Part shown: positions 9,777-10,352 of the stretch, one piece after another | Position numbering within the stretch: position 1 is the stretch's first letter | Layout: each line of letters opens with the position of its first letter | DNA from: a virus | Lineage: Duplodnaviria; Heunggongvirae; Uroviricota; Caudoviricetes | Length of the DNA stretch: 10,352 nucleotides | Strand: one strand, 5' to 3' | Virus record (IMG/VR): IMGVR_UViG_2695420596_000008 | Location: 1-10,352 of that record | Translations under genes and position numbers: made by a program | Notes under the pieces: generated by a model | What the model saw: the letters and a program-made list of their open reading frames with translations, nothing else | What the model was told of the DNA's origin: nothing | Database searches by the model: none

Positions 9777-10352
9777 ATGACAAATACAGCAAAAATACTC
9801 AACTTCGGCAGAGGTAACTTTGCCGAACAGGAGCGTAATGTGGCAGATCTCGATGATGGTTACGCCAGACTATCAAATATGCTGATTGAGGCTTATTCAG
9901 GCGCAGATCTGACCAAGCGACAGTTTAAAGTGCTGCTTGCCATTCTGCGTAAAACCTATGGGTGGAATAAACCAATGGACAGAATCACCGATTCTCAACT
10001 TAGCGAGATTACAAAGTTACCTGTCAAACGGTGCAATGAAGCCAAGTTAGAACTCGTCAGAATGAATATTATCAAGCAGCAAGGCGGCATGTTTGGACCA
10101 AATAAAAACATCTCAGAATGGTGCATCCCTCAAAACGAGGGAGGTTCCCCTAAAATGAGGGACATCCCTCAAAACGAGGGAGGTTCCCCTAAAATGAGGG
10201 ACATCCCTCAAAACGAGGGAAAATCCCCTAAAACGAGGGATAAAACATCCCTCAAATTAGGGGATTGCTATCCCTCAAAACAGGGGGACACAAAAGACAC
10301 TATTACAAAAGAAAAAAGAAAAGTGAACCGCCCCGGGAATCCTGGAGACTAA
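9777..10352 (+). CDS. O: Replication initiator O, N-terminal (iteron-binding) domain only; reading frame ends 191 aa in at a TAA where lambda homology stops (probably truncated)
   Basis: MTNTAKILNFGRGNFAEQERNVADLDDGYARLSNMLIEAYSGADLTKRQFKVLLAILRKTYGWNKPMDRITDSQLSEITKLPVKRCNEAKLELVRMNIIKQQGGMFGPNKNISEWCIPQNEG... matches lambda O N-terminus; lambda O is about 299 aa. Confidence 0.85.
   Translation: MTNTAKILNFGRGNFAEQERNVADLDDGYARLSNMLIEAYSGADLTKRQFKVLLAILRKTYGWNKPMDRITDSQLSEITKLPVKRCNEAKLELVRMNIIKQQGGMFGPNKNISEWCIPQNEGGSPKMRDIPQNEGGSPKMRDIPQNEGKSPKTRDKTSLKLGDCYPSKQGDTKDTITKEKRKVNRPGNPGD
10125..10288 (+). repeat. ori-lambda-type iteron array: 8 iteron-like 17-19-bp repeats (lambda has 4), including a 39-bp two-iteron unit present twice in tandem
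   Basis: Repeats of the form ATCCCTCAAAACGAGGGA / TCCCCTAAAATGAGGGA at about 10125, 10146, 10164, 10185, 10203, 10223, 10247 and 10270, followed by the A-rich tract at 10289-10320. Confidence 0.85.
10324..10352 (+). mobile_element. Possible left terminal inverted repeat of an IS3-family insertion sequence (IS629-like), cut by the window edge
   Basis: tgaaccgccccgggaatcctggagactaa begins with the TG characteristic of IS3-family ends and matches my recollection of the IS629 terminus; lambda O homology stops abruptly just before it. Confidence 0.4.

Follow-up and report, generated by a model that had tools for sequence, protein, structure and literature searches.

A lambda-like O gene very probably truncated by IS629 inside the replication origin of an Escherichia coli prophage

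The last open reading frame of the 10,352-nucleotide stretch of DNA analyzed here (referred to as the window) starts as a lambda-like replication gene O and stops after 191 codons, its stop codon coinciding with the end of the window. This raises the question of which DNA takes over where O ends and what the change means for the replication of the element. The original prediction, made from the sequence alone, was that an insertion sequence of the IS3 family had entered O at the origin of replication. The window itself comes from a lambdoid prophage integrated beside torS and covers its left arm, with the gene order int; exo, bet, gam; kil, cIII; N; a LexA-like repressor; cro, cII; and the truncated O, which is denominated O' in the following. 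As the integrase gene int, at the start of the window (1-1074), directly adjoins the host gene torS, the window starts at the left boundary between prophage and host. The left arm is 98–99.8% identical to apparently complete prophages of other strains, which carry P, ren and the nin genes after O.

The O-derived part of the locus comprises the following features:

9777..10352, + strand: O' fusion reading frame of 191 aa, consisting of 182 O residues followed by VNRPGNPGD, with the stop codon within the left end of IS629
9777..10323, + strand: O-derived DNA, equivalent to lambda 38686-39154, with about 99–100% identity to intact O genes

The translation of O' (protein record CTR40365.1) ends with ...DTITKEKRK-VNRPGNPGD-stop. 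When aligned with an intact O protein of 312 aa (Z1323CEC0006) and with lambda O (299 aa), O' shows identity up to K182, which corresponds to K156 of lambda, and it shares 154 of the 156 lambda-equivalent residues with lambda O. Beyond the K182-equivalent position the intact O proteins read DYSSENSGESS... and continue for 143 more residues. The same limit was obtained with the DNA, since all O alignments found by megablast among 1,893 E. coli records and 205 phage records end at window position 10323 (lambda 39154), and the exact breakpoint is 10323|10324. The lambda-like part of O thus stops at ...ITKEKRK, just as had been proposed, and the residues VNRPGNPGD together with the TAA, which had been regarded as foreign to lambda O, are indeed encoded by the insertion sequence, with the refinement that the first base of codon 183 is still derived from O.

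The N-terminal ori-binding domain is present in O' (Pfam PF04492, Phage_rep_O, residues 22-115, E=4.6e-36, with a score of 123.7 bits at a cut-off value of 28.7), and the C-terminal domain (lambda residues about 157-299) is missing and replaced by the nine IS-encoded residues, in agreement with the earlier view that only the iteron-binding N-terminal part of O was left. Because the C-terminal domain is absent, the O' gene is, judged from its sequence, a truncated derivative and no functional member of the PF04492 family. Among solved structures, none matched O' by sequence.

IS629, of which IS1203 and IS3411 are isoforms, is the dominant insertion sequence of EHEC and Shigella prophages. At the right end of the window it is represented by the following features:

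10324..10352, + strand: first 29 nt of IS629 (IS3 family), left end of the element, which runs past the window
10324-10348: 25-bp left inverted repeat of IS629, TGAACCGCCCCGGGAATCCTGGAGA, beginning with 5'-TG

The 29-mer TGAACCGCCCCGGGAATCCTGGAGACTAA (10324-10352) occurs once in the window, where none was expected from 200 shuffles, and is found at 12,764 places in 3,406 of the 5,426 complete E. coli genomes. Annotated IS3-family/IS629 elements begin on the left with exactly these 29 nt, so that the proposed terminal inverted repeat of IS629 or another IS3-family member could be confirmed. Full copies starting with this 29-mer are 1,310 bp long and have the ends TG...CA; their termini, TGAACCGCCCCGGGAATCCTGGAGA... 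and ...TCTCCAGGAAACCCGGGGCGGTTCA, match as inverted repeats at 23 of 25 positions. In IS3-family elements, a -1 programmed frameshift joins orfA and orfB into the DDE transposase OrfAB; the coding region of these copies is annotated as 'IS3 family transposase, programmed frameshift', together with a pseudoknot, and in a Stx2a phage record a copy at 99.5% identity is annotated as 'IS3 family IS629'.

The source contig CXZG01000016.1 (121,117 bp; E. coli assembly GCA_001283165.1) extends 63 nt past the window and ends inside the insertion sequence. The rightward extension, which had been suggested as a check for an IS3-family orfA, thereby yielded the orfA start codon: all 92 nt following the break agree with full IS629 copies, including the ATG of orfA at IS nt 55, of which the ATG and 12 further codons are visible in the contig. 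In total, 92 of the 1,310 nt of the copy at O can be read, and they match the FY26-type copy, which is itself 99.5% identical to the copy annotated as IS629, at 92 of 92 positions; this subtype and the O157 'IS1203' subtype are ~4% apart and differ in 2 of the first 92 nt. The copy has the same orientation as O. The similarity comprises 29 of 29 nt in the window and 92 of 92 nt in the contig to full IS629 copies with a 25-bp inverted repeat of the TG...CA type, as well as a prophage as the target, and on these grounds the sequence to the right of position 10323 is the left end of IS629. The contig stops at this point because the multicopy IS629 begins there, and it does so before reaching the right end of the copy (the right terminus of IS629 being ...CCAGGAAACCCGGGGCGGTTCA). 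Draft assemblies usually break inside insertion sequences, and an overhang of ~k-1 bases into the repeat is what a real junction normally leaves behind.

The position of the break relative to the origin can be seen from the following features:

10126..10287, + strand: ori iteron array of eight 17-18-bp O-binding repeats (motif scan and lambda iteron annotation)
10126, 10146, 10165, 10185, 10204, 10224, 10248 and 10271, + strand: starts of the individual iterons (motif scan)
10288..10323, + strand: retained part of the ori A/T-rich tract, 36 bp with 75% A+T, corresponding to lambda 39119-39154

In lambda, the origin spans 39034-39160 and consists of the iterons and a 38-bp A/T-rich sequence (PMC3349717), and iteron 4 is annotated at 39101-39118 in the lambda record. 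The break lies 36 bp after the last iteron and ~6 bp short of the right edge of ori; the last ~6 bp of the tract and everything to the right of it have been displaced by IS629.

The iteron array itself is unusual in number. A 39-bp (13-codon) unit is present in three tandem copies at 10124-10240, which brings the number of iterons to eight; lambda has four, and six are known from Stx phages (PMC7466680) and from the closest relatives. In the six-iteron origins of 933W and P27, a 39-bp (13-codon) unit is duplicated upstream of the lambda iterons 1-4 (PMC7466680). The window resembles these Stx phages in that its extra iterons stem from the duplicated 39-bp unit, but differs from them by one further copy of this unit. 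An identical eight-iteron array was found in one complete E. coli genome only, that of strain 03_3013, where it is part of an intact O of 325 aa, and a full-length O of 325 aa was also found in the protein collection; the eight-iteron origin is a rare one.

Uninterrupted empty sites are present in close relatives, among them strain 03_3013. The sequence of this strain aligns with window 7001-10323 at 99.2% identity and continues uninterrupted with GATTATTCG... (also given as GATTATTCGTC...) past the position equivalent to 10323, leaving O intact with its 325 aa.

Taken together, it is very probable that IS629 has transposed into the A/T-rich tract of ori within O, thereby truncating O, which should block the prophage's own replication. 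This bears out the proposal of an insertion sequence within O at the origin, as the left end of IS629 is joined to O inside ori. In detail, an IS629 copy of 1,310 bp would have transposed into the tract, the O frame continues for nine codons into the left inverted repeat and stops at the TAA, and the resulting O' of 191 aa keeps the DNA-binding N-terminus and lacks the C-terminal 143 residues, all eight iterons being kept in the DNA.

The C-terminal part of O recruits the P-DnaB complex to the O-some. Published work is consistent with this role (PMC7466680, PMC3349717). Because this part is missing, the prophage should not initiate its replication by itself, and we can soundly infer a replication defect: after induction, the prophage would be unable to start theta replication at its own origin unless an O protein of the same specificity were supplied in trans. 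The defect that is certain is the loss of the C-terminal domain of O, a trans-acting one, rather than a loss of origin DNA, since the cis-acting ori is largely preserved, with all of its iterons and 36 bp of A/T-rich tract. The prophage is thus likely to be non-inducible as a replicating phage, with IS629 in O as the explanation. If the expression of cargo genes requires phage replication, as in Stx prophages, such an insertion would lower this expression.

The left junction can have arisen in different ways, which differ in what they predict for the DNA beyond the insertion sequence. For a simple insertion, the following feature is of importance:

10321..10323, + strand: candidate target-site duplication AAG (or AAAG from 10320), predicted

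As this junction was seen in a single assembly and nothing else between int and O is damaged, we lean towards a recent simple insertion, in which a 3-4-bp duplication (AAG/AAAG) would have been made and the rest of O, P and nin would probably lie beyond IS629. The right end of IS629 would then be joined to (A)AAGATTATTCGTC..., with O continuing, and the predicted right junction reads ...GGGGCGGTTCA-AAG-ATTATTCGTC... and would lead on into P. Searches for this right junction (IS end, AAG and ATTATTCGTC) in viral, genome-representative and metagenome (JGI) collections found no match. The proteins representing C-terminal fragments of O could be traced to other strains only, either as fragments at contig edges or as frameshifted O, and the nine reading frames predicted for the remnant were all known, occurring on up to 334 contigs each, with none of the CTR series among the matches listed. 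A literature search on the assembly GCA_001283165.1 retrieved nothing relevant.

Concerning the left side, a search of 5,426 complete E. coli genomes, a phage collection, the GTDB species representatives and IMG/VR did not find the junction between O and IS629 anywhere, and an exact-protein lookup placed the 191-aa reading frame on one contig only (CXZG01000016.1). The locus differs in this respect from known IS629 sites, as no insertion equivalent to lambda 39154|39155 was found in the other assemblies searched.

A tentative but serious alternative is an IS-associated deletion or rearrangement bordered by IS629, in which the right end of the element abuts unrelated DNA and distal O and P, perhaps with further parts of the prophage, have been lost or relocated. 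O would be truncated just the same, but the prophage would be a remnant and not a mutant with a single hit. Events of this kind are well represented at O. Nine independent IS629/O junctions were examined in complete genomes, and six of them have no duplication and border deletions, with a loss of prophage DNA on the right side in FY26/NCTC11151 and FDAARGOS_1301 and on the left side in C325, PV15-279, MMC-J-0105 and Z1323PEC0008. The other three are simple insertions with 3-bp duplications, namely GAC in FWSEC0007, GTT in strain 124 and TTA in MS 119-7, the last of which is located at the start codon of O. In O157 genomes, IS629 makes duplications of 3-4 bp and 62% of its copies are found in prophages (PMC3271280), yet matching duplications were seen at only 21 of 47 IS629 sites (PMC3271280). 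Against a deletion edge, the uniqueness of the junction to one assembly suggests a young event, and the 10.3 kb from int to O are intact and, as mentioned above, 98–99.8% identical to apparently complete prophages.

A simple insertion close to this site does exist elsewhere. E. coli O103:H2 strain FWSEC0007 (NZ_CP031908.1) shares with the window the same O allele, the same orientation of the insertion sequence and a target inside ori, and it carries a complete simple insertion with the GAC duplication and with the rest of O and P downstream. In contrast to the window, its insertion sequence lies 34 bp further to the left, at the end of iteron 4, the origin has six iterons and the element belongs to the O157/IS1203 subtype.

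IS629 thus recurs in or beside lambdoid O genes, with two IS subtypes ~4% apart being involved. The junctions of the other genomes are scattered from the start codon of O to about 80 bp beyond ori. For the idea that ori might represent a hot spot targeted by IS629 there is no evidence, because the junctions are scattered along O and the queries used to find them were biased towards the ori/O neighbourhood.

It is most improbable that the junction is an assembly artefact, a chimera in which O was wrongly linked to a multicopy insertion sequence although the strain has an intact O. The contig does end within the repeat, and many unrelated draft contigs break at most 2 nt from the same position without any insertion sequence. 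However, the break is followed by 92 nt of perfect IS629, starting with the very first base of the inverted repeat, as expected from transposition, which makes a chimera unlikely, and O and the insertion sequence share no sequence that could have caused a misjoin in the assembly graph. As for the draft contigs, 23 unrelated draft or metagenome contigs, produced by different assemblers, all start 0-2 nt from GATTATTCG (equivalent to window 10322-10324). They were rejected as IS insertions, since complete genomes whose downstream DNA is identical have an uninterrupted O; the contig starts probably reflect an effect of the assembly graph or of coverage, either at the A-rich tract or at a mosaic boundary.

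One further reading needs no mobile element: O would be a short variant that ends here naturally, or the break would be a boundary of mosaic recombination. This reading can be dismissed, since, although the lambda record marks recombination boundaries only a few bases away (39157/58 and 39165/66), the DNA after the break starts with an exact IS629 terminus and no other phage module, and the nine extra codons and the stop codon are IS-encoded.

Given an insertion of IS629 into O, the part of the replication region that is retained comprises cII, an oop-like antisense unit, the N-terminal DNA-binding domain of O and the eight-iteron array. The oop-like unit consists of the following features:

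9693-9802, - strand: oop-like antisense unit overlapping the 3' end of cII and the start of O, based on consensus matches only
9802-9774, - strand: promoter-like site TTGAGT-17-CATAAT of this unit (consensus match)
9720-9693, - strand: terminator of this unit, a GC-rich hairpin with a T-run (consensus match)

A plasmid-borne 'inhibition phenotype' has been described in which theta replication is silenced in infecting phages that have a lambda-type replication module (PMC3349717), and the cis requirements for this phenotype are oop transcription and iterons, the A/T-rich tract being dispensable (PMC3349717). As the oop-like unit and the iterons of the window would make up the full set of cis elements, one could speculate, at long odds, that the retained module excludes superinfecting or co-resident lambdoid or Stx phages of the same specificity or damps their replication. 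After derepression, the O fragment would occupy iterons without recruiting P.

Cryptic prophages often carry a split or partial O, and C-terminal O remnants occur on hundreds of contigs. The prophage analyzed here is comparable to cryptic prophages with a partial O (e.g. CP-933H of EDL933) in that the N- and C-terminal halves no longer form one protein; unlike the C-terminal remnants of the CP-933H type, it is the N-terminal iteron-binding half that remains. Small structural variation in EHEC prophages is driven mainly by IS629, as has been described for O157 genomes (PMC3271280, PMC4587872). The crippling of a prophage by IS629 is therefore a well-known phenomenon of which only the exact site is new, and the locus adds one more example of IS629-driven prophage decay in E. 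coli, leaving the current understanding unchanged.

Two further features were found in the left arm:

5558-5616, - strand: Rfam Lambda_thermo (cIII thermoregulator element), 88.5 bits, full length
1720-2322, + strand: reading frame of 200 aa between int and the leftward early genes, on the opposite strand, no Pfam match

The C-terminal 88 aa of the latter reading frame match phrog_1416, a family of unknown function, and its position looks like that of a moron, i.e. an accessory gene insert.
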